Shown here: piece after piece, positions 26,438-46,717 of the stretch
How the letters are laid out: every line of letters starts with the position of its first letter
Position numbering within the stretch: position 1 is the stretch's first letter
Source: a bacterium
Lineage (GTDB): Bacteria; UBP6; UBA1177; JAKLFG01
Reading direction: 5' to 3'
DNA: 64,000 nucleotides
Assembly: GCA_022709425.1 (NCBI GenBank)
Contig: JAKLIW010000005.1
Coordinates: 1,422 to 65,421, forward strand
The notes under the pieces: generated by a model
The model's input: only the letters and a program-made list of their open reading frames with translations
Databases searched by the model: none
Told to the model about the DNA's origin: nothing
Made by a program: the position numbers and the translations under genes

Positions 26438-26552
26438 AAAACCCTGTAAATCCGTGTTGCTATCAAAAATTACTGTCTTTTCCCGGCCGGTTATGATAAA
26501 AACCGGTCTGCGGCGGTACTATAGAGGCGTGTTTTTTGACAGGGAGGCAGAT

Positions 26553-29500
26553 ATGAAGGCAAGACATTTCACTTATGTTATCATGGTATTGCTCGCGGCG
26601 ATATTCTTCGCGTCCTGCGAGAACAACAGCAACGATCCCGGGAATGTCGTCCCTGACGATACCGGTGCTATCGAGGTGACCGACGAAGGGGAATTCGTGA
26701 CCGCCGGCAACGGCAAGAACAGCAACAATTACGGCGAGGATGCCGCCGCCACCGACGAAGCGGGGGCCCCCAGCAACGAGGACGACAGGGGGGGCGATGC
26801 CTCCCGCGAGATCGTCGAGGCCGATATCTATAAGGTAGAGGGAAGCATCCTTTATGTGCTCAACCAATACCGCGGACTGATCGCGATCGATGTGACCGAC
26901 CCGACGGCGCTCAAGATCGTCGGCCGCACCTCGTTCAAGGGTATGCCTTTCGAGATGTACGTTCAGGAAGGACGCGCCTATGTCATGGTGACCGGCCTGC
27001 GTTATAACCCCGACGAAGAGGGCGGCGAGGATGGCTACTACGATGCGTCGCGGACCTTTAGCGAACTGATCGTGGTCGATGTCGCCGACCCGGCGAAGCA
27101 GAAGATACTCGGCCGCCACATGATGGAAGGGACCATCATCGATTCGCGGCAGGTGGGCGATGTCCTCTATGTCGCGGCGAGCGAGAACGAATATTATTGG
27201 TATTACTGCGACCATTCGGAGATGCGTGGGAACAATCAGATCACCCTCATGTCGCTCAATATCGCCGACCCGGCCGACATCTATCAGGCAGATGTGGAGC
27301 ATCTTGAGGGTACCGGCTACGCGCTCTATGTGACCGATCACAGCATCTATGTCGCCGAGACCAACTATTCCTACTGGGAACAGGGCTACTACACCGACGG
27401 CGTCCCGGTGCACTATTTCGATATCAGCGATCCCGACGGCACGATCGTCAAGAAGAGCGAATTCAAGACGCGCGGATATATCGGCGATCGCTGGAAGATG
27501 CACGAGAAGGATGGCATCTTCTTCGCGGTGACCACCACCAGCCAGTGGAGCAACGGTGAGACCACCGTCGAGGCGTTCGACGTGACCGATCCGGCCGCCC
27601 CGGCGAAGATATCCGACTTCACCTTCATGCAGGACCAGCAACTCTACGGCGCGCGGTTCGACGGGAACCGGCTCTATGCCGTCACCTATTTCCGGCAGGA
27701 CCCGCTCCATGTCATCGACATCACCGATCCGGCCAAGATGAGCGAACTCGGTCAGCTGGCGGTCCCCGGCTGGTCGACCCATATCGAGATCCGCGGCACC
27801 AAACTGCTCACCGTCGGCATCGACGATCAGGACGGCTGGGCAGCCAAGGTGTCGATGTATGATGTGACCGACCCGGCCAATCCGACTGAAATGACCACCG
27901 TATCGCTGGGCGGCAGTGAGAACGGCTATTCGTGGAGCGAAGCGACGAGCGACTGGAAGGCGTTCAAGATCTATGACGCCATCGGCCTCATTCTCGTTCC
28001 GACCACCGAATGGAACTACGAATCCTACCGCGATGTCAATAAGCTTCACCTTATCGATTTCGATCTGGAGAAGGGGCTCACCAAGCGCGGTTCGGTCGAG
28101 AGTCCCGGTTATGTGCGGCGCGGCGTGGTGGTGGGCGACTACATCGCCAGCGTCGGCGATACCACCGTCATGATGGTTGAATACAGCGACCGCGACAAAC
28201 CGGAGATCCTTTCCAGTCTGCCGGTCGCCTATCCGGTCGAGAATCTCTTCGCCTGCGCCGGAAAACTCTGCGGCACCAAGGGGAACTCGTGGTACGACAG
28301 CGACATTCGCTTGGCTACCTACGATGCGGCCAAGGATTATCCGGTGAACTGGACTTCCGACCGCATCCGCGGCCAGTATATCTATTCAATGCAGAACACC
28401 GCCAAGGCGGTCACGATGTTCAGCTACGACTACGGCTACCGCACCCTTGAGGACGGTTCGCAGCAGTATCAGGAGGGGGTCTACGCGACCCGCTTCAACC
28501 TCGCGGCGGGCAAGAACCCCGCCTTCGCCGGATCGGTCGCGCTCGAGATGCCCCCGCAGGAAGAGACCGACGGCGACTACTGGTACTGGTACGGCCGCGC
28601 CTTCGCGGTGGCCGAGAGCAAGGCGGCCGGGATGATGAGCTCCCGCTACGACTACTACTGCCTTGAGGATGGCATGCCGATGGAGTGCGCCAGCGACGGG
28701 GCCTACGACAACTATTACTATTACAACAAATCGAAGCTGGCGGTCTACGATCTCACCGACATGAGCGGGGATTCGGTCGCGCCGGTCATCATCGACAAGG
28801 AGTTCCGCGCCGTTTCCTACGACAATAACATTATCGCCCGCGGCGACAAACTGTGGCTCACCGACTGCAAACTGCACGCGTGGGATAGCGAAGGACGTGA
28901 ACTGCTCATCTGCTATGCGCAGGCGGTCGATGTGTCCGATCCCGCCAAACCGGTGCTTGCCGAGAAGTACAATATCCCGGGCGAACTGGTCGGTATGAGC
29001 GACGACGGCACCATCTTCTACACCCTGATGCGCACGTGGATCAAGACCGACGAGAACGGCAAACGCGACGGTTACTACTACAACAGCAGCTACCTGTACC
29101 ACATGAACATCCTCAAGAAGAGCGCCGACGGCAAAAAGCTCCAGATCGTCAAGGTGATCCCGTATCACGAAGAGTACACCTACACCGAGAACACCTCGGA
29201 GTACCTCTGGAGCAGTTACATTATTCAGGATAAAACCCTCTTCTTCAACACCATGAAGCAGGTCTATCACTGGGAGGAGACGCAGTGTTCCTACTACTCA
29301 TCGACCATGGAGCGCACCTCGACGGTGGTCGCGTATAACGGCGTGACCGGCGCCAAATTGATGGAAGATGTGATAGCGGACGGCGTGGGTATCGCCAATG
29401 TCGACGGCGGCGGCATACTCGTCCTGCGTCAACCCAACGACGGGTACTACTACTATTACTACGGGTCGGCCTCCAACGAGTACACCTATGTCGCGCAGGA

Positions 29501-29651
29501 CGGCACGATGACCGAGATCACCCTGCCCGAAGCGTCGTACTACGCCGACGATTACTACTACTACAACGGCAACAAGGCGGTGAAGGATGGCGACAACCTG
29601 ATCATCGCGCGCGGGTGGGAAGGGCTCACCACCGTTTCCCTCAAACCGTAA
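26553..29651 (+). CDS. Large lipoprotein with LVIVD-type beta-propeller repeats and Tyr-rich clusters
   Basis: Start set to the ATG at 26553 (AGGGAGG upstream), inside track ORF 26427..29651, giving a lipoprotein signal (LLAAIFFASC). Recurrent (V/I)DV(T/S)DP(A/T)xP motifs (IDVTDPTALK, VDVADPAKQK, FDVTDPAAPAK, IDITDPAKM, YDVTDPANPT, VDVSDPAKPV) match the LVIVD repeat consensus. Oligo-Tyr runs (YYYYYYG, DDYYYYNGNK, DNYYYYNKSK). Confidence 0.7.
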   Translation: MKARHFTYVIMVLLAAIFFASCENNSNDPGNVVPDDTGAIEVTDEGEFVTAGNGKNSNNYGEDAAATDEAGAPSNEDDRGGDASREIVEADIYKVEGSILYVLNQYRGLIAIDVTDPTALKIVGRTSFKGMPFEMYVQEGRAYVMVTGLRYNPDEEGGEDGYYDASRTFSELIVVDVADPAKQKILGRHMMEGTIIDSRQVGDVLYVAASENEYYWYYCDHSEMRGNNQITLMSLNIADPADIYQADVEHLEGTGYALYVTDHSIYVAETNYSYWEQGYYTDGVPVHYFDISDPDGTIVKKSEFKTRGYIGDRWKMHEKDGIFFAVTTTSQWSNGETTVEAFDVTDPAAPAKISDFTFMQDQQLYGARFDGNRLYAVTYFRQDPLHVIDITDPAKMSELGQLAVPGWSTHIEIRGTKLLTVGIDDQDGWAAKVSMYDVTDPANPTEMTTVSLGGSENGYSWSEATSDWKAFKIYDAIGLILVPTTEWNYESYRDVNKLHLIDFDLEKGLTKRGSVESPGYVRRGVVVGDYIASVGDTTVMMVEYSDRDKPEILSSLPVAYPVENLFACAGKLCGTKGNSWYDSDIRLATYDAAKDYPVNWTSDRIRGQYIYSMQNTAKAVTMFSYDYGYRTLEDGSQQYQEGVYATRFNLAAGKNPAFAGSVALEMPPQEETDGDYWYWYGRAFAVAESKAAGMMSSRYDYYCLEDGMPMECASDGAYDNYYYYNKSKLAVYDLTDMSGDSVAPVIIDKEFRAVSYDNNIIARGDKLWLTDCKLHAWDSEGRELLICYAQAVDVSDPAKPVLAEKYNIPGELVGMSDDGTIFYTLMRTWIKTDENGKRDGYYYNSSYLYHMNILKKSADGKKLQIVKVIPYHEEYTYTENTSEYLWSSYIIQDKTLFFNTMKQVYHWEETQCSYYSSTMERTSTVVAYNGVTGAKLMEDVIADGVGIANVDGGGILVLRQPNDGYYYYYYGSASNEYTYVAQDGTMTEITLPEASYYADDYYYYNGNKAVKDGDNLIIARGWEGLTTVSLKP

Positions 29652-32610: not shown

Positions 32611-34785
32611 TTACATCTGATACTCGTAACAGCCCATGTCGGCCGTCGTGGTGCCGATGACCGGCACGTTGACGCGGGCATTCCCTTCAAGGTCGGTGGT
32701 CGGCGCCGGCGTGTCATTGGCGGTATCGATGCAGGGACTGTAGGCGCTCCCGGCGATATCGACCTTCAGATGGAAATCGTTGCCTCCCGCATTGACGAAC
32801 AGCGGATCACCGTGGATGTTGCCGGTTCCGGCGAAATTGCTGTTGGTGGTCATCTCGATATCGCTGTAGGTCGCCGATATCGAACCGCCTCCTGTTTCGT
32901 CGTAGAGCTGACGCGTGTTGTTCCACGTGTTCGTTCCGGTGTTGCCGTAGAGGATGGAATTGACGATGGTGGTGTTGGTGGCGCCCATGTTCGCGATCGC
33001 GCCGCCGTTCTTACCGATGTTCTGCGAGAAGGTACTGTTGGTGACGGTGATGGTCGCGTCATTGGCGCGGATCGCGCCGCCGTTGGCCGTTCCCGAAGAG
33101 TTCAACGAGTTGTCGTAAAATAGGGTATTGGTAACGGTCAGGGTGCGGCCGTCGAAGACATTGACCGCCCCGCCGCTCGCTTCGGAGCTGGTCATGGTGG
33201 TCTGTGAAACGCTGTTGTCATGGAATACGCTGTTGGTGATATTCAGCGCTCCCGAGCCGGTTGCATAGATCGCGCCGCCGAATCCGGTGTCAGCGGTGCC
33301 GATGTTGACGATATTGTTGCTGAACAGGCAGCGTTCTATGGTTAGGGTGCCGCCGTTGATGGCGCTGATGGCACCGCCGCGATAATTGCTGACGCTTTGT
33401 GTGACCACGCTATTGTTGGTGAATGTTGAGTTGCGGAGGGTCATCGAAACGCCGTCAACATAGAGCGCGCCGCCTTCTACATAGTCGGTCATGCCGCTGC
33501 TGCTGCCGTTGATCGCCTTGCCGCCGGTGACGGTGAAGCCGTCGACCACCGCATTGGCGGCTCCCGTCAGCACATGCGACACCTGTGTGGCGCTTCCCGA
33601 CGACTGGTGGCCGTCGATGGTGGTCACGTTCGTGGTCCAGTTACGGCCGTCACGAAGCCACTCGGTTCCGGCGAATCCGCCGTAGAGGGGGACTTTACCG
33701 CGCAACTGAATGGTGTTGCCGGTGCCGGTCTTGTAGATATAGTAGGTGCCGGCGGCGACCCAGACCTCGCAGGTGGCCGCGCTCGATCCGTTGGCCGAGT
33801 CTATTGCCGCCTGTATGTCGGAATAGGCGGCGGCCCACGAAAGGCCGGTGGGTGAACCGGCGCTTACCGGTTTTACGAACCGGACGCAGATCTCGCAGTC
33901 GGCGCCCGCGAAACCGCTGTCGCAACATTTGCCCTGCGTTTCGCTACAGACATAGTTTCCGCAGGGATTTCCGGGATGATCGCTACATTTGCCGCTGTTG
34001 TTGCAGGTCTCGGCGCCGTTGCAGAAAGAGCCGTCTTCGCAGGAGTCGCCGCTTTCCCAGTAACCGGGATCGCAGGCGCCGTTACCGTCGCAGGCATCGG
34101 CGTCATCGCAGGGGGCGCTCGTCTGATCGCCGCAGGGGGTGGCGATCGGTTCGAACTCGTCGGGTGGACAGGTCGGGCTTGATCCGGTACAGGTCTCAGC
34201 GATATCGCACTCCGCGTCGACCGCCGGGCGGCAGACAGTGCCGGAGCGGAAATGACAGCCGTCACAACAGGCGCCGGTGGTGCACTGACAGGTATCGACA
34301 TCGGCATCGGAGGTGGTCGCGTCGTCGGTCACCACCGCACCGTCGTCGGTCACCACTGCGCCGTCGTCGGTCGTTACCGCGCCATCGTCGGTCGTTATGG
34401 CGCCGTCATCGGTGACGGTGTCATCGGTCACCACATCGTCGGTCACCACATCGTCGGTCACCACATCGTCGGTTACGGTGTCATCGGTTACCACATCATC
34501 GGTCACGGTGCCGTCGGTCGCGCTATCGTCATCGAGCAGGGGAAGGTCCCCGTCCAGCGGCTCGGTGTCGCCCTGCGCACTGTCCTCGTCGGTCGTGATG
34601 CCGTCGGCCAACGGATCATCCGTGTCGTCGATCAGACCATCGTTGATGAGCGGGTCGTCATTATTGCCGTTATCGTCGGTATCGGTGTTGCCCGTCCCGT
34701 TATCACGCGGAGGATATATCCGACGGGAGCCATCCTCGCATGCGAGGATGACTACAAACAGCAACGCCGACACAAGCCATCTCAT
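32611..34785 (-). CDS. Lipoprotein: D/T pentapeptide-repeat linker, Cys-rich module, then right-handed parallel beta-helix domain
   Basis: Real start is the ATG at 34785 (GGGAGG upstream; MRWLVSALLFVVILAC lipobox). The upstream part of track ORF 32611..36111 is antisense to purF. Has a (V/A)TDD(T/V)V tandem repeat array, an about 130-aa segment with 27 Cys, and beta-helix coils (NSTFTNNS, ERCLFSNN, ITNSVFHDNS, VTNTLFYDNS, VTNSTFSQN, IVNSILYGN). Confidence 0.7.
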   Translation of the reverse strand: MRWLVSALLFVVILACEDGSRRIYPPRDNGTGNTDTDDNGNNDDPLINDGLIDDTDDPLADGITTDEDSAQGDTEPLDGDLPLLDDDSATDGTVTDDVVTDDTVTDDVVTDDVVTDDVVTDDTVTDDGAITTDDGAVTTDDGAVVTDDGAVVTDDATTSDADVDTCQCTTGACCDGCHFRSGTVCRPAVDAECDIAETCTGSSPTCPPDEFEPIATPCGDQTSAPCDDADACDGNGACDPGYWESGDSCEDGSFCNGAETCNNSGKCSDHPGNPCGNYVCSETQGKCCDSGFAGADCEICVRFVKPVSAGSPTGLSWAAAYSDIQAAIDSANGSSAATCEVWVAAGTYYIYKTGTGNTIQLRGKVPLYGGFAGTEWLRDGRNWTTNVTTIDGHQSSGSATQVSHVLTGAANAVVDGFTVTGGKAINGSSSGMTDYVEGGALYVDGVSMTLRNSTFTNNSVVTQSVSNYRGGAISAINGGTLTIERCLFSNNIVNIGTADTGFGGAIYATGSGALNITNSVFHDNSVSQTTMTSSEASGGAVNVFDGRTLTVTNTLFYDNSLNSSGTANGGAIRANDATITVTNSTFSQNIGKNGGAIANMGATNTTIVNSILYGNTGTNTWNNTRQLYDETGGGSISATYSDIEMTTNSNFAGTGNIHGDPLFVNAGGNDFHLKVDIAGSAYSPCIDTANDTPAPTTDLEGNARVNVPVIGTTTADMGCYEYQM
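34316..34520 (-). repeat. In-frame 15-nt tandem repeat array encoding (V/A)TDD(T/A/V) pentapeptide repeats
   Basis: About 13 consecutive 15-nt units, three of them identical (gtcaccacatcgtcg), inside the beta-helix lipoprotein gene. Confidence 0.85.
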
Positions 34786-34938
34786 GATATCCTCCCTCAC
34801 GGTGTGTACACAACTGAAAACAGGATGCATTATATCCTCGCGTGCGCGGGGAGTCAACCTAAATCTCCGGCCTGTTCCCTTGCTTTTTCCGGTCGTTCTG
34901 TTATAACTGCGGCGTGCGAAGCATCTAAGGAGTCCATC

Positions 34939-36369
34939 GTGTGCGGAATCGCCGGAATTTTCAATGTCCCGGGGGCGGAACGGTATGTCGCCGACCTCCT
35001 GTTCTCGATACAGCACCGCGGTCAGGAGTCGTGCGGCATCTCGGTGCGGCGCGACAACGGCAGCGTGCTTACCTACAAGAACATGGGGCTGGTCAAGCAG
35101 GTGCTGACGCTCGACATCCTTGACCGTCACACCGGCAAGACCGCCATCGGCCATGTCCGCTATCCGACCGCCGGGTCGAGTAACGCGCTCAACAGCCAGC
35201 CACACACCATCGAGTTGGTGCAGGGCTCGGTCATGTCGATATGCAGCAACGGCGATATCGTCAACTACTCGGAACTGCGGCAGAAACTCGAAAAAGAACA
35301 GGGCTTCGTCTTTACCAGCGACAACGACGGCGAACTGATCGGCCGGCTGATCGCCTACCACCATCACTCGGCCTCCGAGCGGCTTCCCATCGAACAGGCC
35401 ATCGCGGCGACCCAGAACGAACTCAAGGGGGCCTTTTCGGCGCTGCTCATCTACCGCGACACGATGTACGCCTTCCGCGATCCGCACGGCTTTCGCCCCT
35501 ATGTCATGGGTCATCTGACGTGGCAAGGCGTCGGCGAGATGCCCTCCGAAGGTACCTGTTTCGCCTCCGAATCGTGCGCCTTCGGCATCATCGGCGCCCG
35601 GTTCGTCCGTGAACTGAAGCCGGGCGAGATACTGAAACTCGAGAAGAACCGTCCGCTGACCGTCGTCGCGGTCAACGCCAAACAGCCGCGGCACTGCGTG
35701 TTCGAACTCATCTACTTCTCGCGTCCCGATACCATCACCTTCGGCGAGTCGGTCTACCGCACCCGCCAGCATATCGGCGCAACGCTCGCCCAGCGCGACG
35801 GCGACATTCCCAACGGCGACGACCTGACCGTCATGGCGGTCCCCGATTCGTCGAACTTCGTGGCGCTGGGCTATGCCGCCGAGAAAAAGGCGTCGTTCGA
35901 CATGGGACTCATCCGCAACCACTATGTCGGCCGCACCTTCCTGCGCCCGTTGCAGGATGCCCGCGACGAAGGGGTCAAGCAGAAATTCAACCCGCTTCCC
36001 GGATTCTTCACCGATAAGCGCGTGGTGCTGGTCGACGATTCCATCGTCCGCGGCACGACCCTGCGCAAGATAGTCCGCATGATAAAGGGGGCCGGCGCGA
36101 AGGAGGTCCATGTCCGCATCGGTTCACCGCGTGTCATCGGATCGTGCTTCTACGGCATCGATACGCCGACCCGGTCGGAACTCATCGCGAACAACAAGAC
36201 GGTCGAAGAGACGCGCGACTACCTCAACGCCGACTCGCTCCGTTACCTTGAAATACCCGATTTTCAGCACCTGTTGAAAAAGCCGGGCGACTTCTGCACC
36301 GCCTGTTTCAGCAACGACTATATCTACGTCCCGCCGTCGTTCGTCAAAACGAACGCCCCCGGCTGCTGA
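34939..36369 (+). CDS. purF: Amidophosphoribosyltransferase PurF
   Basis: GTG start followed by the catalytic Cys (V/M-CGIAGIF). Ntn-type glutamine amidotransferase domain plus PRTase motif VVLVDDSIVRGTT. AAGGAG RBS 7 nt upstream. The track ORF 34252..36369 N-terminal extension is antisense noise. Confidence 0.9.
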   Translation: MCGIAGIFNVPGAERYVADLLFSIQHRGQESCGISVRRDNGSVLTYKNMGLVKQVLTLDILDRHTGKTAIGHVRYPTAGSSNALNSQPHTIELVQGSVMSICSNGDIVNYSELRQKLEKEQGFVFTSDNDGELIGRLIAYHHHSASERLPIEQAIAATQNELKGAFSALLIYRDTMYAFRDPHGFRPYVMGHLTWQGVGEMPSEGTCFASESCAFGIIGARFVRELKPGEILKLEKNRPLTVVAVNAKQPRHCVFELIYFSRPDTITFGESVYRTRQHIGATLAQRDGDIPNGDDLTVMAVPDSSNFVALGYAAEKKASFDMGLIRNHYVGRTFLRPLQDARDEGVKQKFNPLPGFFTDKRVVLVDDSIVRGTTLRKIVRMIKGAGAKEVHVRIGSPRVIGSCFYGIDTPTRSELIANNKTVEETRDYLNADSLRYLEIPDFQHLLKKPGDFCTACFSNDYIYVPPSFVKTNAPGC

Positions 36370-36376
36370 CATTCCC

Positions 36377-37153
36377 ATGACCTCACCGCACGGCATTGAA
36401 CGGCTCACGGCGATCATGGCGACCCTGCGCGGCCCGAACGGCTGTCCGTGGGACCGCAAACAGTCGATCCCGTCGCTCAAGCCCTATATCATTGAAGAGG
36501 CTTACGAAGTGGTCGAGGCGATCGATCAGGGGACCGACGAACTGCAGGACGAACTGGGCGATCTCCTGTTGCAGATAGTCTTCGTGTCGCAGATGGCGCA
36601 GGAGCAGGGACTGTTCGATTTCGATTCGGTCGCCGAACGGATATCGGACAAACTGGTGCGCCGTCATCCCCATGTCTTCGGCGATACGCAGGTGAAGGAT
36701 GCCGACGAAGTGGTGCAGAACTGGAACCAGATAAAGAAGGACAAAGAGGCGAAGAAATATCTCCTTGACGGCATCCCCACCGCGATGCCTGCGACCCTGC
36801 TCACCCAGCGCTACGCCGACCGCGCCGCGTCGGTCGGGTTCGACTGGGGCAAATGGGAGGACACCCTCGCCAAGATAGCGGAAGAGACGGACGAACTGAA
36901 AGAGGCGGTCGCTTCGGGCGACGCCGATAAGACCTTCCACGAGATGGGCGACCTGCTCGCGGCGGTGGTGAACCTGTCGCGCAAACTCGGCATCAACCCC
37001 GAGGACTCCCTGCGCCACTGCGCACTCCGGTTCCGTGAACGGTTCAATATGATGGAAGAACTCGACCCCACCGCCACCGACGGCAAACATTCGCTCGACG
37101 ATCTCGAAGCGCTCTGGCAGAAGGCGAAGAAGGAATTAGCGAAGAAAAAGTAA
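36377..37153 (+). CDS. mazG: Nucleoside triphosphate pyrophosphohydrolase MazG
   Basis: Tandem MazG domains. EExxE-type motifs (IIEEAYEVVEAI, IAEETDELKEAV). CPWD(R/K)KQ motif (GCPWDRKQS). Confidence 0.88.
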   Translation: MTSPHGIERLTAIMATLRGPNGCPWDRKQSIPSLKPYIIEEAYEVVEAIDQGTDELQDELGDLLLQIVFVSQMAQEQGLFDFDSVAERISDKLVRRHPHVFGDTQVKDADEVVQNWNQIKKDKEAKKYLLDGIPTAMPATLLTQRYADRAASVGFDWGKWEDTLAKIAEETDELKEAVASGDADKTFHEMGDLLAAVVNLSRKLGINPEDSLRHCALRFRERFNMMEELDPTATDGKHSLDDLEALWQKAKKELAKKK

Positions 37154-37171
37154 AGAAAGAGGAGGGGAGAA

Positions 37172-37498
37172 ATGAACGGACCTTTTCTTCTTGAAGCGAA
37201 AACGATCGCGCGCGAAATGAACCGTATGCTTCCCGGCTGTTTCCTGCTGTGCGACGTTGCTAAAGTCGTGCGGTCCGTCGGTCGCGCCGAAAGGGAATTG
37301 CCGACCGATCTTCTGGCGCGTGTGGGCGGGAAGGATGCGGTGTGGTTCTATTACGAATATACGCAGAACGCCAAACAGGCTTTTGAATTGGAGTGCCAGT
37401 ACTATCATCGTCATTTTTCCACCTTGACCAAAAGATTCCATCCGAAACGGCCGGAAGGGAAAGATTGGACCTGTTCCGTCGGCTGCGGGTACAAATAA
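37172..37498 (+). CDS. Hypothetical small protein (108 aa)
   Basis: Strong RBS GAGGAGGGG 6 nt upstream of ATG. No recognisable family. Has Cys pairs (CFLLC, CSVGC). Confidence 0.45.
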   Translation: MNGPFLLEAKTIAREMNRMLPGCFLLCDVAKVVRSVGRAERELPTDLLARVGGKDAVWFYYEYTQNAKQAFELECQYYHRHFSTLTKRFHPKRPEGKDWTCSVGCGYK

Positions 37499-37550
37499 AA
37501 AAAAGGATCCTTTTTCCGCGAACAGGTATCTAATGAGGTGAAAGATGCGC

Positions 37551-37578
37551 TTGATTACCGGGCGCGTTGGCATATAAT
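37551..37578 (+). promoter_or_regulatory. Sigma70-like promoter (TTGATT-16-TATAAT) for the downstream lipoprotein gene
   Basis: -35 TTGATT at 37551-37556 and -10 TATAAT at 37573-37578, about 30 nt upstream of the GAGGAGGGGG RBS and the ATG at 37610. Confidence 0.5.
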
Positions 37579-37609
37579 GCGGCGAAACTTTCGCAGAGGA
37601 GGGGGCGTC

Positions 37610-38341
37610 ATGGCCAAATACTTCGTGTTCATCGCGGCGGCGGTATTCTTCATCGCGTGCGGCGAGGAGAAGGCGACGGCCGACAATGATACGGCGGTGC
37701 CGGACAACGAGAGTTGCGGCAAGGACCGGAATGTGTGCGCCACCGACTGGCATCATGTGCTCCGCTGTTCCGCCGGGACATGGATCGTGCTGGAAGATTG
37801 CGGCGAGAATTTGTGCGAGATAAAGGAGGGGGTGGGGGTATGCGCCACCACGACCGACGAGATCCAGACGCCGGGTGACGAGGATGCGGTGAACGACGAC
37901 GACGCGCTCGGGCCGGGTTATACGCTGACCGATGTGGTCTACACCGATCTGCTGGAACATACGCCGGGGTCGTTGCCGTTCGACTACAAACGCTACGAGG
38001 TGTTCCGCGATGAAACGGCGTTCGGGCTGTTCTTTACCTCGCTCGATTTGGGGATAGATGCGCCGGTGGTGGATTTCGAGAAGGATATGGTCATCGCGCT
38101 GTTCAACGGGATGTGGCCGGACCTGCGTCCCATGTATCAGGTCGACAGCATCAAGAAGTTGGTGCCGGACGATCCCGAGGATATCCACGACAAGGTGCTG
38201 ATGGTCGAGACATCGACGCATTACTACAGCGACAAATTACCTGCCGATCAGATGTTCTACTATCCGCTTCAACTCATCAAGGTCGAGAAGGCCGACCTCG
38301 TGAATTTCAATGACCGGTTCGTGCTGGAGAGGAGTTATTGA
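37610..38341 (+). CDS. Hypothetical lipoprotein (243 aa)
   Basis: Start at the ATG at 37610 (inside track ORF 37538..38341) gives MAKYFVFIAAAVFFIAC. Has a Cys-rich N-module and acidic linker. No family recognised. Confidence 0.6.
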   Translation: MAKYFVFIAAAVFFIACGEEKATADNDTAVPDNESCGKDRNVCATDWHHVLRCSAGTWIVLEDCGENLCEIKEGVGVCATTTDEIQTPGDEDAVNDDDALGPGYTLTDVVYTDLLEHTPGSLPFDYKRYEVFRDETAFGLFFTSLDLGIDAPVVDFEKDMVIALFNGMWPDLRPMYQVDSIKKLVPDDPEDIHDKVLMVETSTHYYSDKLPADQMFYYPLQLIKVEKADLVNFNDRFVLERSY

Positions 38342-38513
38342 TCAAATATATCGTTTCAACGCCCTGACCCCAATGGTCGCTCTGTTCCCAATATTCTGAC
38401 CTCAATATGTCTTCAGATGTCCCGGTCGTTATTTCTCTTGACTTTTTCGTAGCTAAAAACATAACATCGACACGCTATTTAACTTTAGAATTAGATGGAA
38501 GGGAGCATAAGCG

Positions 38514-38954
38514 GTGAGAAAAATAGTGATTGGCGTAATCCTATGTTCATTGATGTCCGTGTTTTTGGCGACCTCCTGCGTTGGTCTTTATGCGGGCGCT
38601 ATGTCGGAAAGCACTTCCTATGAGGGAGCGTACTCTTGGAAAAGCCCCGGTAAAATGAGTGACGAGGAGACCTTCGACTTGATAATGAAAAGTGCAGAAG
38701 AACAGGGCTATCATTTGGCGAAAGATTCGAGGGACGAGGATAATACCATCCATTTTACCTCGTCAAGTTCAGGTGCGAATACAACTTTCACCGGAAGAAG
38801 TCAAAGAGTCCTGTTGTGGTTCAAAGTGAACCACGGCAAGATACGGATTAAGACGATGCTGACGGGAAACTACAGCTTCGGTTCGAAGGAAAATTCCGAT
38901 GAGCTGATTGAACAATTCAAGAGAAAAATGAAAGAAATTAGGAAAAAAGATTAA
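38514..38954 (+). CDS. Hypothetical lipoprotein in AT-rich islet
   Basis: GTG start, signal plus lipobox (LATSC). GC is about 40% against about 65% for the flanks. Confidence 0.5.
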   Translation: MRKIVIGVILCSLMSVFLATSCVGLYAGAMSESTSYEGAYSWKSPGKMSDEETFDLIMKSAEEQGYHLAKDSRDEDNTIHFTSSSSGANTTFTGRSQRVLLWFKVNHGKIRIKTMLTGNYSFGSKENSDELIEQFKRKMKEIRKKD

Positions 38955-39034
38955 GGAGCCTCTCAGGTTAAGGCATTAAAGTAGTCATTAAAGTAGTCAG
39001 AGGGGTCAGGGCGTTTATGGTATAGTTAATTATT

Positions 39035-39274
39035 TCACGATTCCCGGTCTTGATCTTTCCGCTTCCGGCGGGCGAGTAGCGCCCCGAACCGGTCCATGAA
39101 CACCATCGCGCTCAACTCGAAGAGCCCATACAGCGGGAACGCCAGCGCCATCACCCCGACGAACACGATGAACGCCACCGCCAGCGCGAACCCCATATCC
39201 TGCCCGACCAGCACCAGCACCCCGAGCACCGCCGCCGCCAGCCCCGCGCCAACCCCGAGAAGAATTTTGATCAT
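39035..39274 (-). CDS. Small two-TM membrane protein (hypothetical)
   Basis: MIKILLGVGAGLAAAVLGVLVLV...AVAFIVFVGVMALAF. The start could also be the upstream ATG at 39373. Confidence 0.4.
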   Translation of the reverse strand: MIKILLGVGAGLAAAVLGVLVLVGQDMGFALAVAFIVFVGVMALAFPLYGLFELSAMVFMDRFGALLARRKRKDQDRES

Positions 39275-39496
39275 ACCGCCCCGCTCTTCACCGATGAACC
39301 CGCCACACTGTATATAATAAGGGATTCCGGTCAAGCGTTTTTTTGCTGATATGGCAATGTTGTCTAAATGCAACTAACTAAATAGAATGGATAATTACAA
39401 GAAAACTTGATTTTACTCACCATCCTGAGTATTTTTACTCAGTGTCCTGAGTAGTTTTGCTCGGGGCATTGAAGAAACTTCCGGAAGGAGGAGCCG

Positions 39497-40684
39497 ATGT
39501 ACCGCAGAGCGATGTTCGACACGGTCCGCGACCGCCTGACCGAACCGAGAAAATTCATACAGGTACTCGCCGGTCCCCGTCAGGTCGGCAAAACGACGCT
39601 CATCACCCAACTCCTCGAAACGCTCGACCTGCCGCACGCCTACGCGTCGGCCGACGGCGCCGAGCGGCCGATCTGGATAGAACAGCAGTGGCAGGCGGCG
39701 CGTGTCCGGCTTGCCGAGTCGCCGCGCAAGGAATTCCTGCTCGTCCTCGACGAGATCCAGAAAGTGAACGGATGGACCGATGCCGTCAAACGGTTGTGGG
39801 ACGAGGACACGCGGGAGAAGCGGGCGCTCAAACTGGTCATCCTCGGCTCGTCGCCGCTACTCATCAGGAGCGGCCTGAACGAAAGTCTGGGCGGCCGGTT
39901 CGAACTCATCCGCTGTACCCATTGGAGTTTCGCCGAGATGCGCGACGCCTTCGGCTTCGATACCGACCGGTATCTCTTCTTCGGCGGCTATCCCGGAACG
40001 GCCGGGCTGACCGGCGATGAGAAGCGGTGGCGCGGATATGTCCGCGAGTCGCTCATAGAAACGACCATCTCGAAGGATGTCCTGCTGATGAACCGGATCG
40101 ACAAACCGGCGTTGTTGCGCACGCTGTTCCTGCTTGGGGCCCGTTATTCGGGGCGGATCTTGTCCTACACGAAGATGCAGGGGCAGTTGCAGGATGCCGG
40201 GAATATCGTCACGCTGGCCCACTATCTGGAACTTCTCGACGGGGCGGGGATGCTTGCGGGACTTGAGAAATACGCGGGGGAGGAGGTGCGCCGCCGCGGG
40301 TCGAGTCCCAAGTTGCAGGTCTACAACAACGCCCTTTTCACCGCCGTGCGGGACGACGGGTTCGCCGAGGTGCGGCGCGAACCGGAACGCTGGGGACGCA
40401 TCGTCGAATCGGGGGTCGGCGCGTTCCTGCTGAACGAAGCGGTTTCGCGCGGTCTGAAACTGCTCTATTGGCGCGACGGCGGCGGCGAGGTCGATTTCGT
40501 GTTGATGAAAGGTGACCGCATCGTGGCGATCGAGGTGAAAAGTGGCGCGTCGCGGGAACGCCCGGCGGGTCTGGAGAAGTTCGTCGCCGGGACAACGGGA
40601 AAAAAGGTCAAACCCTATCTGGTCGGGAGCGGCGGTATCGCGCTCGATGAGTTCTTCTCGATGGATGTCGAGTCCTTGTTCTGA
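39497..40684 (+). CDS. AAA-family ATPase with DUF4143-type C-terminal domain
   Basis: Walker A GPRQVGKTT, Walker B LVLDEIQ. Overall architecture matches the widespread AAA_14 + DUF4143 ATP-binding protein family. AAGGAGGAG RBS. Confidence 0.75.
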   Translation: MYRRAMFDTVRDRLTEPRKFIQVLAGPRQVGKTTLITQLLETLDLPHAYASADGAERPIWIEQQWQAARVRLAESPRKEFLLVLDEIQKVNGWTDAVKRLWDEDTREKRALKLVILGSSPLLIRSGLNESLGGRFELIRCTHWSFAEMRDAFGFDTDRYLFFGGYPGTAGLTGDEKRWRGYVRESLIETTISKDVLLMNRIDKPALLRTLFLLGARYSGRILSYTKMQGQLQDAGNIVTLAHYLELLDGAGMLAGLEKYAGEEVRRRGSSPKLQVYNNALFTAVRDDGFAEVRREPERWGRIVESGVGAFLLNEAVSRGLKLLYWRDGGGEVDFVLMKGDRIVAIEVKSGASRERPAGLEKFVAGTTGKKVKPYLVGSGGIALDEFFSMDVESLF

Positions 40685-40761
40685 TCTAAAAGAAACCGGC
40701 CGGAATTACCCGGCCGGCATCGTGAGGTGGACAAAGAGCAGGGAACAAAGAGCGGGGGGAA

Positions 40762-40989
40762 TTACTTCTTCGCGCCGCAGTTGCACTTGCCCTTTTCGCC
40801 GCACTTGCAATCCTTGGCGCAGTTGCACTGCTTGCCTTCGTGGCAGCCGCACTTGCATTCCTTGCCGCAGGTGCATTCGGTGGTCTTGCCCTTCTGGCAG
40901 CCGCAACTACAGCCTTCGCCCGCCATCAGATTCGCCGTACCGAGGGTCATCGCCGTCAGCACCAGCGCCATCGCCAACATTTTCTTCAT
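40762..40989 (-). CDS. Secreted metallothionein-like Cys-rich mini-protein (75 aa precursor)
   Basis: ATG at 40989 with AAAGGAG RBS. Signal peptide MKKMLAMALVLTAMTLGTANLMA. Mature about 52 aa with 14 Cys in CxC/CxCGC/KCxC arrangement, Lys/Gly-rich, no aromatic residues. Confidence 0.7.
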   Translation of the reverse strand: MKKMLAMALVLTAMTLGTANLMAGEGCSCGCQKGKTTECTCGKECKCGCHEGKQCNCAKDCKCGEKGKCNCGAKK

Positions 40990-41033
40990 CGCTTCTTCTC
41001 CTTTCAAAGGTTACGAAACAGCGACCATACTAG

Positions 41034-41049
41034 AGCACGATGCGTGCCA
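41034..41049 (-). promoter_or_regulatory. Sigma54 (-24/-12) promoter upstream of the metallothionein-like gene
   Basis: The minus strand reads TTGGCACG-catc-GTGCT, against the consensus TGGCACG-N4-TTGCW. GG and GC are correctly spaced, and the site is about 46 nt upstream of the ATG. Confidence 0.7.
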
Positions 41050-41159
41050 ACGGCATGATGTTTTTTGTCTCTTGTAAAAACAATGAGTTGCGTTTCATTT
41101 CGGTGCTTCGGAAAAGAAAAGTGTAGACATTTCATCGTCACATTTGTAGAATAGTCTCC

Positions 41160-42536
41160 ATGATGGGGAGAAGATTACTCATAGCCGATGACGACGCGAG
41201 CTTCCGGGAGGTGATGTCGTTCACCCTCACCGAAGCGGGCTACACGGTCGACGCCGCGGCCGACGGGATGGCGGCGCTCGAACTCTTCCGCCGTCAGCGC
41301 CATCCGGTGGTCATCACCGATCTCAAGATGCCGGGGATGGACGGGATGGAGCTGACCAAACGGGTGAGCGCCCTTGCGCCGGGAACGCTGGTCATCGTGA
41401 TAACGGCCTTCGGCGAGGTCGATACCGCTGTGGCCGCGATGAAGGCGGGCGCCTTCGATTTCATACCCAAGCCGTGCGACCGCGACCATCTCAAGATAGT
41501 GGTGGGACGCGCCTTTGAACACGCGCGGCTCGCCGATGAGAACGCGGTGCTCAAGCGGACGCCGTCGAGCGAGGGGAAGGAACTCATCTACCGGTCGGCC
41601 GCGATGCAGACGGTGGTGACGGTCGCCGACCGCGTCGCCGAAAGCGATCCGACCCTGCTCATCACCGGCGAGAGCGGCACCGGTAAGGAACTGCTCGCCC
41701 GCCGCATTCACCGCCGGTCGACCCGTGCGTCGGGGCCGCTGGTAGTGGTCAACTGCGCCGCGATACCGGCCGAACTACTCGAAAGCGAACTTTTCGGTCA
41801 CCGCAAAGGATCGTTCACCGGCGCGGTGCGCGACGCCCGGGGAAAGTTCGAACTGGCCCACGGCGGGACGCTCTTTCTCGATGAGGTGGCCGAACTGCCG
41901 CTTAATCTTCAGCCGCGTCTTCTGCGCGCCCTGCAGGAGTCGGCGATAGATGTGGTCGGCGGCGAGGAACCGGTGCCGGTCGATGTCCGGGTCATCGCGG
42001 CGACCAACCGCGATCTGGCGAAACTCGTCGACGAAGGGAAGTTCCGGCTCGATCTTTTTTACCGGCTCAATGTCATCGTCCTCCACATACCGCCGCTGCG
42101 GGAGAGGAGCGAGGATATCGCGCCGCTCGCCAAACATTTCCTCGCGGTCTACGGCGGCGGCCGGCCGTTCGATCTGGGCGACGAGGCGTTGCGGCGGATG
42201 CGGCAGTACCGGTGGCCCGGCAATATCCGCGAACTGGAGAACATCTGCCAGCGGGTGACGCTCCTTGCCGACGGCGGGGTGGTGCCGCTGGAACTGATAC
42301 CCGAAACGACGCCCGAGACGGAGGGGATGGTGGTGAGCGCGGCGGGGCGCATCCAACTGCCCGCCGGGGGGATATCGCTCACGGAACTCGAGAAAGAGGT
42401 GATCGTGCAAGCGCTGGAACGGAGCGGCGGGAACAAGGCGCAGGCGGCGCGGCTGCTGCGTATCCCGCGGCACATCCTGCTCTACCGTCTCGAACAGCAC
42501 GGCATCACCGGGAAGGGGAACGATGAGAAAGGGTAA
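41160..42536 (+). CDS. Sigma54-dependent response regulator (NtrC family: REC + AAA+ + Fis-type HTH)
   Basis: Receiver domain with phospho-acceptor Asp (VVITDLKMPGMDG). AAA+ sigma54 activator domain with GESGTGKE Walker A and GSFTGA (GAFTGA-type) motif. C-terminal HTH. Confidence 0.92.
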   Translation: MMGRRLLIADDDASFREVMSFTLTEAGYTVDAAADGMAALELFRRQRHPVVITDLKMPGMDGMELTKRVSALAPGTLVIVITAFGEVDTAVAAMKAGAFDFIPKPCDRDHLKIVVGRAFEHARLADENAVLKRTPSSEGKELIYRSAAMQTVVTVADRVAESDPTLLITGESGTGKELLARRIHRRSTRASGPLVVVNCAAIPAELLESELFGHRKGSFTGAVRDARGKFELAHGGTLFLDEVAELPLNLQPRLLRALQESAIDVVGGEEPVPVDVRVIAATNRDLAKLVDEGKFRLDLFYRLNVIVLHIPPLRERSEDIAPLAKHFLAVYGGGRPFDLGDEALRRMRQYRWPGNIRELENICQRVTLLADGGVVPLELIPETTPETEGMVVSAAGRIQLPAGGISLTELEKEVIVQALERSGGNKAQAARLLRIPRHILLYRLEQHGITGKGNDEKG

Positions 42537-43620
42537 GGAACTGCTCTCGCTCAAGGCGTGGGGACTCCTCTGGCTGCCGATACTCGCCATCACTATGGCC
42601 CATTTCACCACCGACGCCGAGATGGTGTGGGTCCACGACATCCTGCGGCGGCTCTACTACATCCCGATAGTGCTCGGCGCCTTCGGCTGGGGCCTGCACG
42701 GGGCGCTCGCGGCCTCCATCGCATCGTCGCTGGTCTATCTGCCGCACGCTTTTCAAATGTTCTTTCACCATTTCCACCACGATCCGGGGGGCTCGACCGA
42801 AAAGATACTGGAGATACTCCTCTTCAACATCATCGCCCTCATCGCCGGGGTGCTGGTGGAGCGCGAACGGCGCGAACGGCGGCGGCAGGAGGAGATCGCG
42901 CGGAAACTCTCCGAGACGCTCGACGAGATGAAACTGCTCGAAGAACAGCTCATCCGCGCCGGACGCCTGCAGGCGCTGGGCGAGCTGACCGCGGGGCTCG
43001 CCCACGAGATAAAGAACCCGCTCGCCTCGATAAAGGGGGCGGCCGAGATCGTGGCCGACGGCATACCGGCCGATTCGCCGCGCCGCCGGATGGTCGATAT
43101 CCAACGCGCCGAGATAGATCGGCTCACCGCGCTTCTCGAACGGTTCCTCGCCTTCGCGCGGCCCAAGGACTTCGTCGTGTCTCAGGTCGACATCGCCACG
43201 CTCATGAGCGACACCGTCGCCTTCATCGCGCCGCAGGCGGCGAAGAAGAAGGTGCGTTTTGATACGCGGTTTGAGCCGCTCACGGTCCCGGCCGACCGCG
43301 AGAAACTGACGCAACTGCTGCTCAACATCCTCCTCAACGCCGTCGATGCCTCGCCCGAAGGGGCGGCGGTGACCGTTACGACCGAACGGCGCCGCAAGGG
43401 AAAGGCCGACTACGCCTGTATCACCATCGCCGACCGCGGGGCGGGGATAGCGGCCGAACTGCGCGACAAGGTCTTCAATCCCTTCTACACCACCAAACCC
43501 GACGGAACGGGCCTCGGGCTTTCGATAGCGGCGCGCATCGCCGATCAGCACAAAGGATTCATCGAGGTGGGTTCGGCGCCGGAAGGGGGCGCGCTCTTTA
43601 CGGTCTATCTGCCGGTATAG
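42523..43620 (+). CDS. Sensor histidine kinase with four TM helices, no periplasmic domain, His-rich extracytoplasmic loop
   Basis: H-box LAHEIKNPLASI. N/G1/G2 boxes (LLNILLNAVDAS, DRGAGI, GTGLGLSI). N-terminal 110 aa has four hydrophobic helices with an FHHFHHDPGG loop. Overlaps the response-regulator gene end. Confidence 0.88.
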   Translation: MRKGKELLSLKAWGLLWLPILAITMAHFTTDAEMVWVHDILRRLYYIPIVLGAFGWGLHGALAASIASSLVYLPHAFQMFFHHFHHDPGGSTEKILEILLFNIIALIAGVLVERERRERRRQEEIARKLSETLDEMKLLEEQLIRAGRLQALGELTAGLAHEIKNPLASIKGAAEIVADGIPADSPRRRMVDIQRAEIDRLTALLERFLAFARPKDFVVSQVDIATLMSDTVAFIAPQAAKKKVRFDTRFEPLTVPADREKLTQLLLNILLNAVDASPEGAAVTVTTERRRKGKADYACITIADRGAGIAAELRDKVFNPFYTTKPDGTGLGLSIAARIADQHKGFIEVGSAPEGGALFTVYLPV

Positions 43621-44789: not shown

Positions 44790-46115
44790 TCAGTTCCCCG
44801 TTTCTATTTTGACGGTGCCGGTGCCGAGTGGCTCTTTCTTAAGGCCGAGCACCACGCCCGTGGCGGTGGCGGCGCCGGCGATGACGGTGCCGGTGATGGT
44901 CCAGAACCACCACGTTTTATACCACGGCGTGGGCCGTTCCAGAACGGTCAGATTGCGGACATTGGCGGTTCCCGGCGCGACGTAGATGTCGGTCTGGTAG
45001 GGAAAATAATCGTCCTGATCGGCCATGACGCGCAGATTGTAGCGGCCCGGCACGAGATTCTCGGCGGCGAACTGGCTCTTCTCCAGCTTTCCCTTGGTGG
45101 GGCCGAACTGCAGATCGCCGTCGGCTACATTGAAGGTTATCGCGATGCTTCCCGGTTTGCTGGTGTAGTCGATGCCGGCGAGTTGGTAGGCGGCCAATTT
45201 CACGGCGTTCTTGAGCTCCTCGGCATCGCCCGCGAAACTTTCCAGCACGCGGTTCTCGACCTCGGCGCGGCGTGTGTCGATGAGCTGTATCGAGATTACA
45301 TAGGTGTCTTTCACCTTACCGACCGATCCGGTGACCAGTTTCGACAGGCCCAGCGATGCGCCGATCTCGACCACGCACTGCATGCTGTCGGTGCACTCGA
45401 CCGCCGAGTCCATCGATACTTTGGCGAGCATCGCCTTGATGTCGTCCTGACTGATGACGCTGATCCCTTTTATCTGGTTGAGTTGCGAGGAGAGTATCGA
45501 GGTGAGGGCGTCGGCCGTCGCGATCTCGACGCCGCGCGCCGAGAGGGGCATAACGGCGAGCTTGAGCTGTTCGCCCTCTTTCAGCTGGAACATCGGTTTT
45601 TCCTTGGCGAGGCCGAGCAATTTATCGATCGTTTCCTTTATCTTCGCTTTGATATCGTTGAGGTCGGTCCCCTGCACGTTGGTCCGCTTGCCGACGACCG
45701 AGTTGTTGACATCGACGGTGTTGAGCGAAAGGATGTATTCGTCGCCCATCTTCGCGATCTTCCCGGCGACCAGCGTATCGACCGCCAGTTTCTTCTGCAC
45801 CTCGATGACGCATTCGGCCGAATCGGCGCAGCCGAGTTCGACGCTCGTCTGGGCGTACTGGACCGTCGCGGTCATCTCGGCCGAGGTGACCACGGTGAAG
45901 CCTTCGCGCTTGCCGATATCGAGCACCAGCGCCTCCTCAATCGACTTCGCAAACGCCTCGTCGACATCGACCCCTTCGATCTTATCGACGAGCAGTTTGC
46001 GTGCCTCTGCGGGTGCGGCGGCCGGAGCCTCTTCTTTAGCCGGTTCAGCGGCCGAAAGCGCCGCGGTCAGAAAACAGACACACAGCATTCCCCGGAAAAG
46101 TTCTTTCCACATCAC
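44790..46115 (-). CDS. Secreted single-pass membrane protein with duplicated CxxxxC modules and PEGA-like domain
   Basis: Signal peptide. Two homologous about 100-aa modules (CADSAECVIEV...GDEYILSLNTVDV and CTDSMQCVVEI...KDTYVISIQLID). PEGA-like segment (PGRYNLRVMADQDDYFPYQTDIYV). C-terminal TM (WWFWTITGTVIAGAATATGVVLGL). Confidence 0.55.
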   Translation of the reverse strand: MMWKELFRGMLCVCFLTAALSAAEPAKEEAPAAAPAEARKLLVDKIEGVDVDEAFAKSIEEALVLDIGKREGFTVVTSAEMTATVQYAQTSVELGCADSAECVIEVQKKLAVDTLVAGKIAKMGDEYILSLNTVDVNNSVVGKRTNVQGTDLNDIKAKIKETIDKLLGLAKEKPMFQLKEGEQLKLAVMPLSARGVEIATADALTSILSSQLNQIKGISVISQDDIKAMLAKVSMDSAVECTDSMQCVVEIGASLGLSKLVTGSVGKVKDTYVISIQLIDTRRAEVENRVLESFAGDAEELKNAVKLAAYQLAGIDYTSKPGSIAITFNVADGDLQFGPTKGKLEKSQFAAENLVPGRYNLRVMADQDDYFPYQTDIYVAPGTANVRNLTVLERPTPWYKTWWFWTITGTVIAGAATATGVVLGLKKEPLGTGTVKIETGN

Positions 46116-46717
46116 TTTCCCCCGATCAACTTCTCGATGACCTTCTCAATGTCACCTATGTTTTTGGTCTTCTCCCCTTGCAGTTTCTTAACCATCGTGC
46201 CGTTCGCGTCGAAGATGACGACCGTCGGCAGTATCGCCTTGGAGCCCATGTAGACCAGTTGATTGCGGCTGGTGAAGCGGTCGAAAAGGATGGGGTAGGT
46301 TATCTTCTTATCCTTCATGATCTTCACCGTCTCGGCGAGCACCGCGTCGGGATTCTCGTTCTCGTTGCGGAAGTTGACGCCGATGAACTGCACCTCCTTC
46401 GCGCCGTATTTCTCGGAGAGTTTCTGCAGAAGCGGCATCTCGGCGAGACAGGGTTTGCACCAGTTGGCGTAGAAATTCATCACGAGCGCCTTCTTGCGCG
46501 GCGCCGGGGTGCTGTTCGCCTTGCCGGCGGGCGGCTCACCCACGAAATCGGTCAGCCAGACGAGGCTTTTAAGTTTGCCGCTCTCCAGATCGACGGTCCT
46601 CATACCGAAATCGACGAGTTTCGAGCCCTGAGACAGTCCCTCGGCATCGAGTGCTTTGTCGGCGGCACACAGCGAAAACGATAGGAACGACAGGAAAAAG
46701 AAAGAGAGAATTCTCAT
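46112..46717 (-). CDS. TlpA-like thiol-disulfide oxidoreductase (thioredoxin fold, secreted)
   Basis: Signal peptide and WCKPC active site. Stop overlaps the start of the downstream gene. Confidence 0.85.
   Translation of the reverse strand: MRILSFFFLSFLSFSLCAADKALDAEGLSQGSKLVDFGMRTVDLESGKLKSLVWLTDFVGEPPAGKANSTPAPRKKALVMNFYANWCKPCLAEMPLLQKLSEKYGAKEVQFIGVNFRNENENPDAVLAETVKIMKDKKITYPILFDRFTSRNQLVYMGSKAILPTVVIFDANGTMVKKLQGEKTKNIGDIEKVIEKLIGGK

Follow-up and report, generated by a model that had tools for sequence, protein, structure and literature searches.

A predicted Sec-exported, metallothionein-like peptide encoded beside a sigma-54-dependent two-component system in an uncultured bacterium

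PcoE and SilE are small disordered exported proteins that are induced by a metal-sensing two-component system and serve as first-line periplasmic buffers of several ions. Another example of such an arrangement is the ZraP–ZraSR system, in which ZraR drives the divergent sigma-54 promoters of zraSR and zraP, the latter coding for a periplasmic Zn-binding protein (PMC4987338). With respect to metal storage based on cysteine (Cys), the bacterial metallothioneins (MTs) treated in two reviews of 2020 and 2024, including SmtA/BmtA and MymT, are placed in the cytoplasm, and the only exported Cys-based metal store described in them is Csp1, a Tat-exported four-helix bundle that stores Cu (PMC7558416, PMC11672702). 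Here, a small gene is analyzed that lies at positions 40762..40989 (−) of a stretch of 64,000 nucleotides (hereafter the window, to which all coordinates refer) from a bacterium of the GTDB lineage UBP6 (assembly GCA_022709425.1, contig JAKLIW010000005.1, positions 1,422 to 65,421). Together with the divergent genes of an NtrC-family regulator and a histidine kinase, it is read from its sequence and context as a three-gene metal-stress module, whose peptide would be a metal-stress-induced, exported metal-thiolate sponge; this interpretation is considered probable, with appreciable room left for others. In the literature searched, the coverage of which is incomplete, no earlier description was found of a Sec-exported MT-like peptide, nor of a periplasmic metallothionein or an MT-like peptide under sigma-54 two-component control.

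The peptide and the described Cys-based metal stores

The coding sequence (ATG at 40989, TAA stop at 40764..40762) gives a precursor of 75 amino acids (aa), MKKMLAMALVLTAMTLGTANLMAGEGCSCGCQKGKTTECTCGKECKCGCHEGKQCNCAKDCKCGEKGKCNCGAKK. At its N-terminus the features of a Sec-dependent signal peptide have been recognized by inspection and hydropathy, namely a charged n-region (MKK), a hydrophobic h-region (MLAMALVLTAMTLG) and a c-region (TANLMA), and cleavage is predicted after residue 23 (signal peptide at 40921..40989, −), between LMA and G. This site, (L/V)-M-A followed by G-(D/E), is kept in all peptide homologs. The signal peptide has neither a twin-arginine motif nor a lipobox, D or E-G being found before the first Cys. 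The mature peptide (52 aa, 40765..40920, −), a long variant in its family, is built of units of about eight residues of the form C-x-C-G-K-(E/D)-C-K, which at the DNA level appear as a weak 24-nt tandem unit (3.1 copies, 67% matches). It contains 14 Cys (27%), 11 Lys, 10 Gly, 5 Glu and a single His, with eight CxC motifs, a net charge of +5, and not one F, W, Y, I, L, V or M residue; among the stop-free stretches in the six frames of the window it has the highest Cys density (14 Cys in 50 aa, vs. 10 for the next). These traits (small size, very high Cys content, CxC motifs and no aromatic residues) are those by which a metallothionein is operationally recognized. An earlier note on this DNA, written from the letters alone, had described a peptide of about 52 residues with 14 Cys and no aromatics, a Sec signal peptide and an MT-like CxC/Lys/Gly composition; the recount of the mature part, the inspection of the signal peptide and the invariance of the Cys residues reported below agree with it on all of these.

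Compared with SmtA/BmtA (PF02069) and the mycobacterial MymT, the peptide is alike in its size, its proportion of Cys, its CxC motifs, its Lys richness, and its lack of aromatic residues and of an autonomous fold: AlphaFold run on the precursor gave a low-confidence model (predicted local distance difference test score of 54) with no helices. Unlike those cytoplasmic proteins, it has a Sec-type signal peptide; and whereas SmtA has conserved His residues and a zinc-finger-like fold, the single His of the window peptide is not conserved, being replaced by Gln in 8 of the 10 relatives (the short forms). The precursor matched no curated MT family in Pfam at E ≤ 1, and NCBIfam gave zero significant matches to the peptide. 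Therefore, the distinction from SmtA/BmtA drawn in the earlier note holds, no homology to these or to any other curated MT family having been found, and the hidden Markov model check on MT families that it proposed has now been run, with no family reaching its cutoff. On these grounds the peptide may be called MT-like in the operational sense, while it is a member of no defined MT family. PcoE and SilE differ in their Met/His ligands and in their sigma-70/OmpR-type control, as opposed to the Cys-only, sigma-54-controlled window peptide, and share no sequence similarity with it. The methanotroph proteins Csp1/Csp2 are exported Cys-thiolate stores of several Cu(I) ions in the periplasm (PMC7558416), a role similar to that predicted for the window peptide; on the other hand, Csp1 is a pre-folded four-helix tetramer of ~120 aa that uses the Tat pathway, whereas the window peptide has 52 aa, no predicted helices and a Sec-type signal.

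The relatives used to assess the conservation of the gene were gathered by a protein search (5 matches), a scan of GTDB species genomes (L007–L011) and a scan of metagenomes with a DNA pattern (L021–L024). The peptide open reading frame (ORF) is unbroken in all 10 related loci, and it is therefore no chance product. Insertions and deletions between the loci measure 3, 9 or 36 nt, all of them multiples of three; the 14 Cys columns are purely Cys, 6 of them mixing TGC and TGT, and 18 of the 39 non-Cys columns of the mature peptide are variable. Most relatives are of a short form, with 10 Cys in 37–39 aa, from which the long form differs mainly by an insertion of 12 residues. The codon usage of the gene is host-like, its GC content at third codon positions (GC3) being 0.84 vs. 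0.79–0.83 in neighboring host genes. On this comparative evidence, the ORF is a real, conserved small gene.

As the earlier note had pointed out, a longer ORF of 116 aa (40727..41077, +) overlaps the peptide gene on the opposite strand, and the note had named it as a possible true gene. The proposal that this ORF is the genuine one, or that nothing is encoded here and the Cys-rich frame is an artifact, is favored by its 116 open codons in the window and by the fact that it shares its wobble positions with the peptide frame. Because of this sharing, variation at third codon positions cannot tell the two frames apart, and the pairwise counts of synonymous and nonsynonymous changes (465/519 vs. 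442/660) separate them weakly; that test was dropped, and the frames were distinguished instead by ORF integrity and by the behavior of the Cys codons. By these measures the antisense frame, as opposed to the peptide ORF, is interrupted in L001 (two stops) and in L006 (one stop), and Cys codons change synonymously only in the peptide frame. The antisense ORF has no Pfam match, and it would cross the terminator, the ribosome-binding site (RBS) and the promoter of the peptide gene. This alternative is thus refuted. A further possibility raised in the earlier note, that the peptide is only part of a longer repeat protein, does not hold either, because a terminator follows the gene directly and the homologs are only 60–75 aa long.

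Regulatory context and the metal link

The peptide gene has the look of an expressed gene, since RBS, promoter and terminator are all recognizable on the minus strand. The RBS, AAGGAG (40998..41003, −), lies 8 nt before the ATG and is kept in 10 of 10 aligned loci. Farther upstream, the element TGGCACGCATCGTGCT (41034..41049, −) has its −24 GG and −12 GC spaced by the 12 nt that is canonical for sigma-54 promoters (elements TGGCAC and TTGCW) and is the sole sigma-54 match in the window, where 0.16 matches would be expected (at least one match was obtained in 15 of 100 shuffles). The distance of this −24/−12 element from the ATG is fixed in six species (58–59 nt in each of the five from GTDB), and its cores TTGGC and TGCT are invariant across the 10 loci, with a variable spacer between them; such conservation in orthologous loci, together with the neighboring gene of a GAFTGA-type regulator, identifies it as a sigma-54-dependent promoter. 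An intrinsic terminator (40685..40718, −), with a 10-bp stem (8 G–C pairs), a 4-nt loop and a T-tract, follows the gene, and its stem is kept in L001, L005, and L006. Between the stop codon and this terminator there is a 14-nt tandem repeat, ACAAAGAGCAGGGA (40731-40757; 1.9 copies, 92% match), which is kept in L005 and partially in L001. On the other side of the intergenic region, a sigma-70-like promoter, TAGACA-17-TAGAAT (41124..41152, +; 10 of 12 matches), precedes the regulator gene. In an alignment of the intergenic region (170 nt, 10 loci), the invariant columns correspond to the sigma-54 core, the RBS, and a block beside the start codon of the regulator gene; the latter is the most conserved intergenic block, coincides with the sigma-70-like promoter and is a candidate region for regulator binding.

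The divergent gene (41160..42536, +) encodes an NtrC-family, sigma-54-dependent response regulator with receiver domain, AAA+ domain and Fis-type helix-turn-helix (Pfam Response_reg, Sigma54_activat at 230 bits, and HTH_8), the translation of which contains a GSFTGA loop; its scores fall below all NCBIfam equivalog cutoffs (AtoC, NtrC, ZraR). It is followed by a histidine kinase gene (42523..43620, +; HisKA and HATPase_c), which is syntenic in the relatives with 81–92% identity. Both genes are present in all related loci and are the sole conserved neighbors of the peptide gene, the gene downstream of the latter being MazG in L001, AAA_14/DUF4143 in the window and L005, and RhuM/Fic in L006. 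Since only these upstream genes and the promoter spacing persist, the conserved unit consists of peptide, regulator and kinase, and the peptide gene would be a monocistronic sigma-54 target. The promoter, the regulator and the pairing of the two are borne out by sequence and conservation. Besides the regulator and the kinase, the window neighbors include a glycosyltransferase, AAA_14/DUF4143, and MazG. Three genes past the kinase lies the gene of a secreted protein of thioredoxin fold (46112-46717, −; Redoxin/AhpC-TSA matches, WCKPC motif, signal-like N-terminus), which is syntenic in L008 and L023; its product could be a periplasmic reductant.

The input domain of the kinase is of a membrane type. 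About four hydrophobic segments, read as four helices, make up the N-terminal ~112 residues of the kinase, which lacks a large periplasmic domain and matches DUF4118 below threshold (24.2 bits vs. a cutoff of 28.4). Between the predicted transmembrane helices 3 and 4 there is a His-rich loop, PHAFQMFFHHFHHDPGGSTEK (residues 74–94, 42742..42804, +), in which H75, H82, H83, H85, H86, and D87 are invariant in 6 species. By hydropathy and the positive-inside rule this loop is predicted to face the periplasm, because the Lys/Arg-rich N-terminus and an ERERRERRR stretch after the helices are placed in the cytoplasm, and it is a candidate metal-sensing site. A search for this sensor domain elsewhere returned two fragments only. 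Two distant kinase homologs, whose genes adjoin those of sigma-54 regulators, share the scaffold (HD-x-LRRLYY, YLPHAF, DP-x-G), and the equivalent loop is His-rich in one of them (P0024) and has no His in the other (P0025). Such divergence of the loop on a shared scaffold fits a ligand-specific loop, which is suggestive, not decisive, and the kinase loop may define an undescribed type of membrane-loop metal sensor.

This arrangement resembles the ZraP–ZraSR system of E. coli and Salmonella in that the genes of an NtrC-family regulator and a kinase are divergent from a sigma-54-driven gene for a small exported protein predicted to bind metal. The differences, however, are considerable. The window regulator reaches 369 bits vs. 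the 760 of the ZraR cutoff, and the kinase 194 vs. 479 (ZraS); the regulator gene precedes that of the kinase and apparently has a sigma-70-type promoter; and the kinase has no periplasmic domain. Besides, ZraP is a His-rich, helical, oligomeric chaperone, whereas the window peptide is of the Cys-thiolate type and has no ZraP or Pfam match. Judged from the sequences, the proteins are not orthologs and the locus is not a ZraPSR member, having only the architecture in common.

A link to metals is offered by sister strains. An exhaustive HMMER profile search recovered P0015, a protein whose N-terminal stretch of ~31 residues (MKRMVMMMIVLAAMTLGTSALLAGEGCGCGC) shows homology to the window peptide, including the signal peptide and the GEGCGCGC start; past this point it continues with an Ala/Pro-rich linker and ends in a Pfam HMBD domain (PF19335, 45.3 bits vs. 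a cutoff of 23.6). In the three loci concerned (L017, L018, and L022), the P0015 gene is divergent from a regulator gene whose product is 98.5–99% identical to that of the window, and it is preceded by a sigma-54 element, TGGCATACATTCTGCT, at a position equivalent to the window promoter. It is followed by genes for an outer-membrane efflux protein (OEP, PF02321) and then for a CusB-type membrane-fusion protein with HMBD, HlyD_D23, and HlyD_D4 (CusB hairpin) domains. Therefore, both kinds of loci have an orthologous regulator and the same type and distance of promoter, but P0015 heads a Cus/Czc-like RND efflux operon, whereas the window peptide is monocistronic and has an expanded Cys-rich region. 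At the DNA level, the regulator gene of the HMBD-cargo loci is 94.3% identical to that of the window, and those of the MT-cargo loci of the same group (L001, L005, L006, and L008) 94–96%; in the intergenic and signal-peptide region, the corresponding values are ~76% vs. 86–99%, and the similarity of the window to the HMBD loci vanishes beyond position 40897. As identity is high inside the regulator gene and then lower and finally lost, the regulator is orthologous and a promoter-plus-cargo module has been exchanged. One allele would sequester metal and the other would export it. This exchange of cargo is the main reason for reading the two-component system as a heavy-metal sensor, and the presence of a sigma-54 two-component partner and of HMBD/efflux cargo at the same regulated slot takes the metal link beyond a guess from composition. 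As for the identity of the metal, Cu(I)/Ag(I) is suggested by the HMBD domain and the CusB-like partner, and Zn, Ni, or Cu(II) would likewise be compatible with a sensor rich in His.

Proposed mechanism and rival explanations

In the mechanism proposed, a metal ion in the periplasm would be sensed by the membrane kinase, probably via its invariant His-rich loop, and the kinase would phosphorylate the NtrC-type regulator, which would in turn switch on the sigma-54 promoter of the peptide gene. The precursor would leave the cytoplasm unfolded through Sec and be cut after LMA. Since it has no hydrophobic core, the apo-peptide may fold only around soft metal ions, giving metal-thiolate clusters as in metallothioneins. 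Lys richness is the usual counter-charge for the anionic metal-thiolate clusters of MTs, and here too the Lys side chains would balance the charge of the clusters. From Sec export and metal-thiolate folding it follows that the peptide would buffer soft metals periplasmically or extracellularly, ahead of their entry into the cytoplasm, and by lowering the free metal it may feed back on the kinase. In mammalian MT domains, 9 Cys bind 3 divalent ions and 11 Cys bind 4; by analogy, the 14-Cys long form is estimated to bind ~4–5 ions if these are divalent (Zn/Cd) and a larger number if they are Cu(I)/Ag(I), and the 10-Cys short forms a single cluster of 3–4 ions. Given the weak 24-nt tandem unit and the 12-residue insertion, metal capacity seems to evolve by gain and loss of repeats.

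Several points weigh against this interpretation. Metal binding, export, cleavage and induction of the peptide are all inferred from the sequence, and the label "MT-like" rests on composition, because no curated MT family or solved structure was matched: against the Pfam MT families, the best score of the mature peptide was 9 bits for Metallothio_5 (cutoff 25), and a sequence search of the PDB found no match to the peptide. The link to metals is a context taken from sister strains and not from the window strain, and no Cus/Czc efflux genes are present in the 64-kb window. A repeat search of the intergenic region found no binding (enhancer) site for the regulator. In an oxidizing periplasm, 14 thiols would form disulfides; an anaerobic host, which would bear on this oxidation, is suggested only by the titles of related metagenome-assembled genomes (MAGs). 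As to the phylum, two relatives are named "uncultured Spirochaetales". Finally, other phyla have secreted proteins and lipoproteins with CKCGC repeats, which form a looser group of uncertain homology, and their gene contexts (L012, L013, L015, L016, L019, and L020) are mixed, with no consistent metal signal.

A different role has to be considered for the same genes. Like ZraP for ZraSR or CpxP for CpxAR, the peptide might chiefly assist or feed back on its own two-component system from the periplasm, binding metal and/or the kinase loop in order to tune signaling rather than serving as a bulk sink, an idea that overlaps with the sponge preferred here. Beside the regulator and kinase genes of the MT-type loci, no sigma-54 target other than the peptide gene was found, and this gene accompanies them in every such locus; the kinase exposes short loops only, so that a partner protein could supply sensing; moreover, ZraP is both a periplasmic Zn binder and a repressor of ZraSR (PMC4987338 and references cited therein). 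Nevertheless, the number of Cys residues shifts (10 to 14) by gain and loss of repeats, which better fits a binder of variable capacity than a specific interface, and the slot holds in sister strains an efflux operon, that is, an effector, so that a mainly regulatory role is regarded as rather unlikely. Somewhat less likely still is a scavenger for arsenite/antimonite, oxidants or electrophiles, or a template for the extracellular precipitation of metal sulfides. Fourteen exposed thiols would indeed react with As(III), oxidants, and electrophiles, and the secreted WCKPC protein past the kinase could be taken in the same sense; but the HMBD domain and CusB-like resistance-nodulation-division (RND) system of the sister cargo indicate cationic soft metals, there are no ars genes near the peptide locus, and the Lys-rich makeup is that expected around anionic metal-thiolate clusters.

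Two further readings would place the peptide outside metal metabolism altogether. Many small, secreted, Cys-rich peptides with a positive net charge are toxins, and up to seven disulfides could make the product a defensin- or knottin-like antimicrobial peptide or bacteriocin. However, there is no hydrophobic or aromatic residue for membrane contact or for a folded core, CxC spacing is ill-suited to disulfide knots, AlphaFold shows no compact fold, and no immunity, transporter, maturase or processing gene lies near the peptide gene in the window; with a metal-binding protein and an efflux pump as the alternative cargo of the slot, this function appears very improbable. The product could also be the precursor of a ribosomally synthesized and post-translationally modified peptide (RiPP), for instance one that, like SCIFF or the ranthipeptides, is a substrate of radical-SAM enzymes forming thioethers; short Cys-rich peptides are typical RiPP substrates, and a distant compositional relative, in L016, even adjoins a radical SAM gene. 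That relative, however, is a secreted protein of 269 aa and not an ortholog, the N-terminus of the window peptide is a classical Sec signal instead of a RiPP leader, and the 10 core loci hold no maturase, protease or ABC exporter, which leaves this origin barely credible. The metal-thiolate sponge is accordingly the explanation retained below.

Family breadth, the wider window, and significance

The peptide family is narrow, since an exhaustive HMMER profile search of 1.84 billion representatives gave only 19 proteins at E ≤ 1e-3 (2 of them at E ≤ 1e-10); a word-indexed protein search found 5 close relatives only. All core members come from uncultured bacteria of a small clade. The distant CKCGC-repeat proteins were not used as evidence, as they may share composition only. 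Their neighbors include a BlaI/CopY-type repressor with an extracytoplasmic function (ECF) sigma factor, a radical SAM enzyme, HSP20, and flavodoxin. In a proteobacterial MAG (L013, 2010-4538), a secreted protein of 132 aa with 26 Cys in CKCGK-type repeats has its gene flanked by that of an ECF sigma factor and that of a BlaI/CopY-family repressor, the latter paired with a gene showing weak M48/M56 (BlaR1-type) peptidase matches. Unrelated proteins can bear such a motif too: a Bacillales MAG (L014, 4711-6078) has an ORF of 455 aa with a CKCGKDCKC-type tail (...DECDCGHHGEDHECKCGKDCKCSHKE) and, by eye, a likeness to histidyl-tRNA synthetase. Another protein, P0014 (238 aa), has N-terminal CKCGC repeats followed by a GrpE region below threshold (22.1 bits vs. 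25.8), and in a Gastranaerophilales MAG (L016, 4937-6848) the secreted 269-aa protein mentioned above, with a Cys-rich C-terminal tail (CKCGVDCTCSPKCNCKNECKCGKDCNC...), is encoded directly upstream of the radical SAM gene.

Downstream of the peptide gene, the stretch from the terminator to MazG looks like an insertion hot spot, because its gene content differs in every related locus; in other loci this variable segment carries lipoproteins. In the window, a segment of low GC3 (37136-39400; 0.53–0.57 vs. ~0.8 in the host) lies here between MazG (36377-37153) and AAA_14/DUF4143 (39497-40684). Beyond MazG, a protein of 1166 aa (32611-36111, −), which is its conserved neighbor in related loci (42–67% identity), shows a sub-threshold Disintegrin match (34.8 bits vs. 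35.1) and a locally high Cys content. A protein of 1074 aa (26427-29651, +) with a Beta_propel domain and LVIVD repeats is unrelated to the peptide. Across the entire window, no Rfam model reached its gathering threshold.

For annotation, the peptide gene illustrates how a short ORF can be hidden by a longer one on the opposite strand. In a wider sense, the locus could represent the first Sec-exported bacterial MT family, with a minimal kinase module based on a His loop, a regulated slot in which interchangeable defences (the MT peptide, or an HMBD protein with an RND efflux pump) occur within one species-level group, and a Cys count that tunes capacity; the chances that this broader picture holds or fails are judged to be evenly balanced. 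By placing either sequestration or efflux under one and the same regulator, the swap of cargo amounts to a natural experiment in metal-defence strategy, and the compact circuit of kinase, regulator, sigma-54 promoter, and 75-codon output could serve for biosensors or for bioremediation display. If the interpretation is true, a Sec-exported peptide of MT type extends metallothionein chemistry to the bacterial envelope and raises the question of how its thiols stay reduced there.

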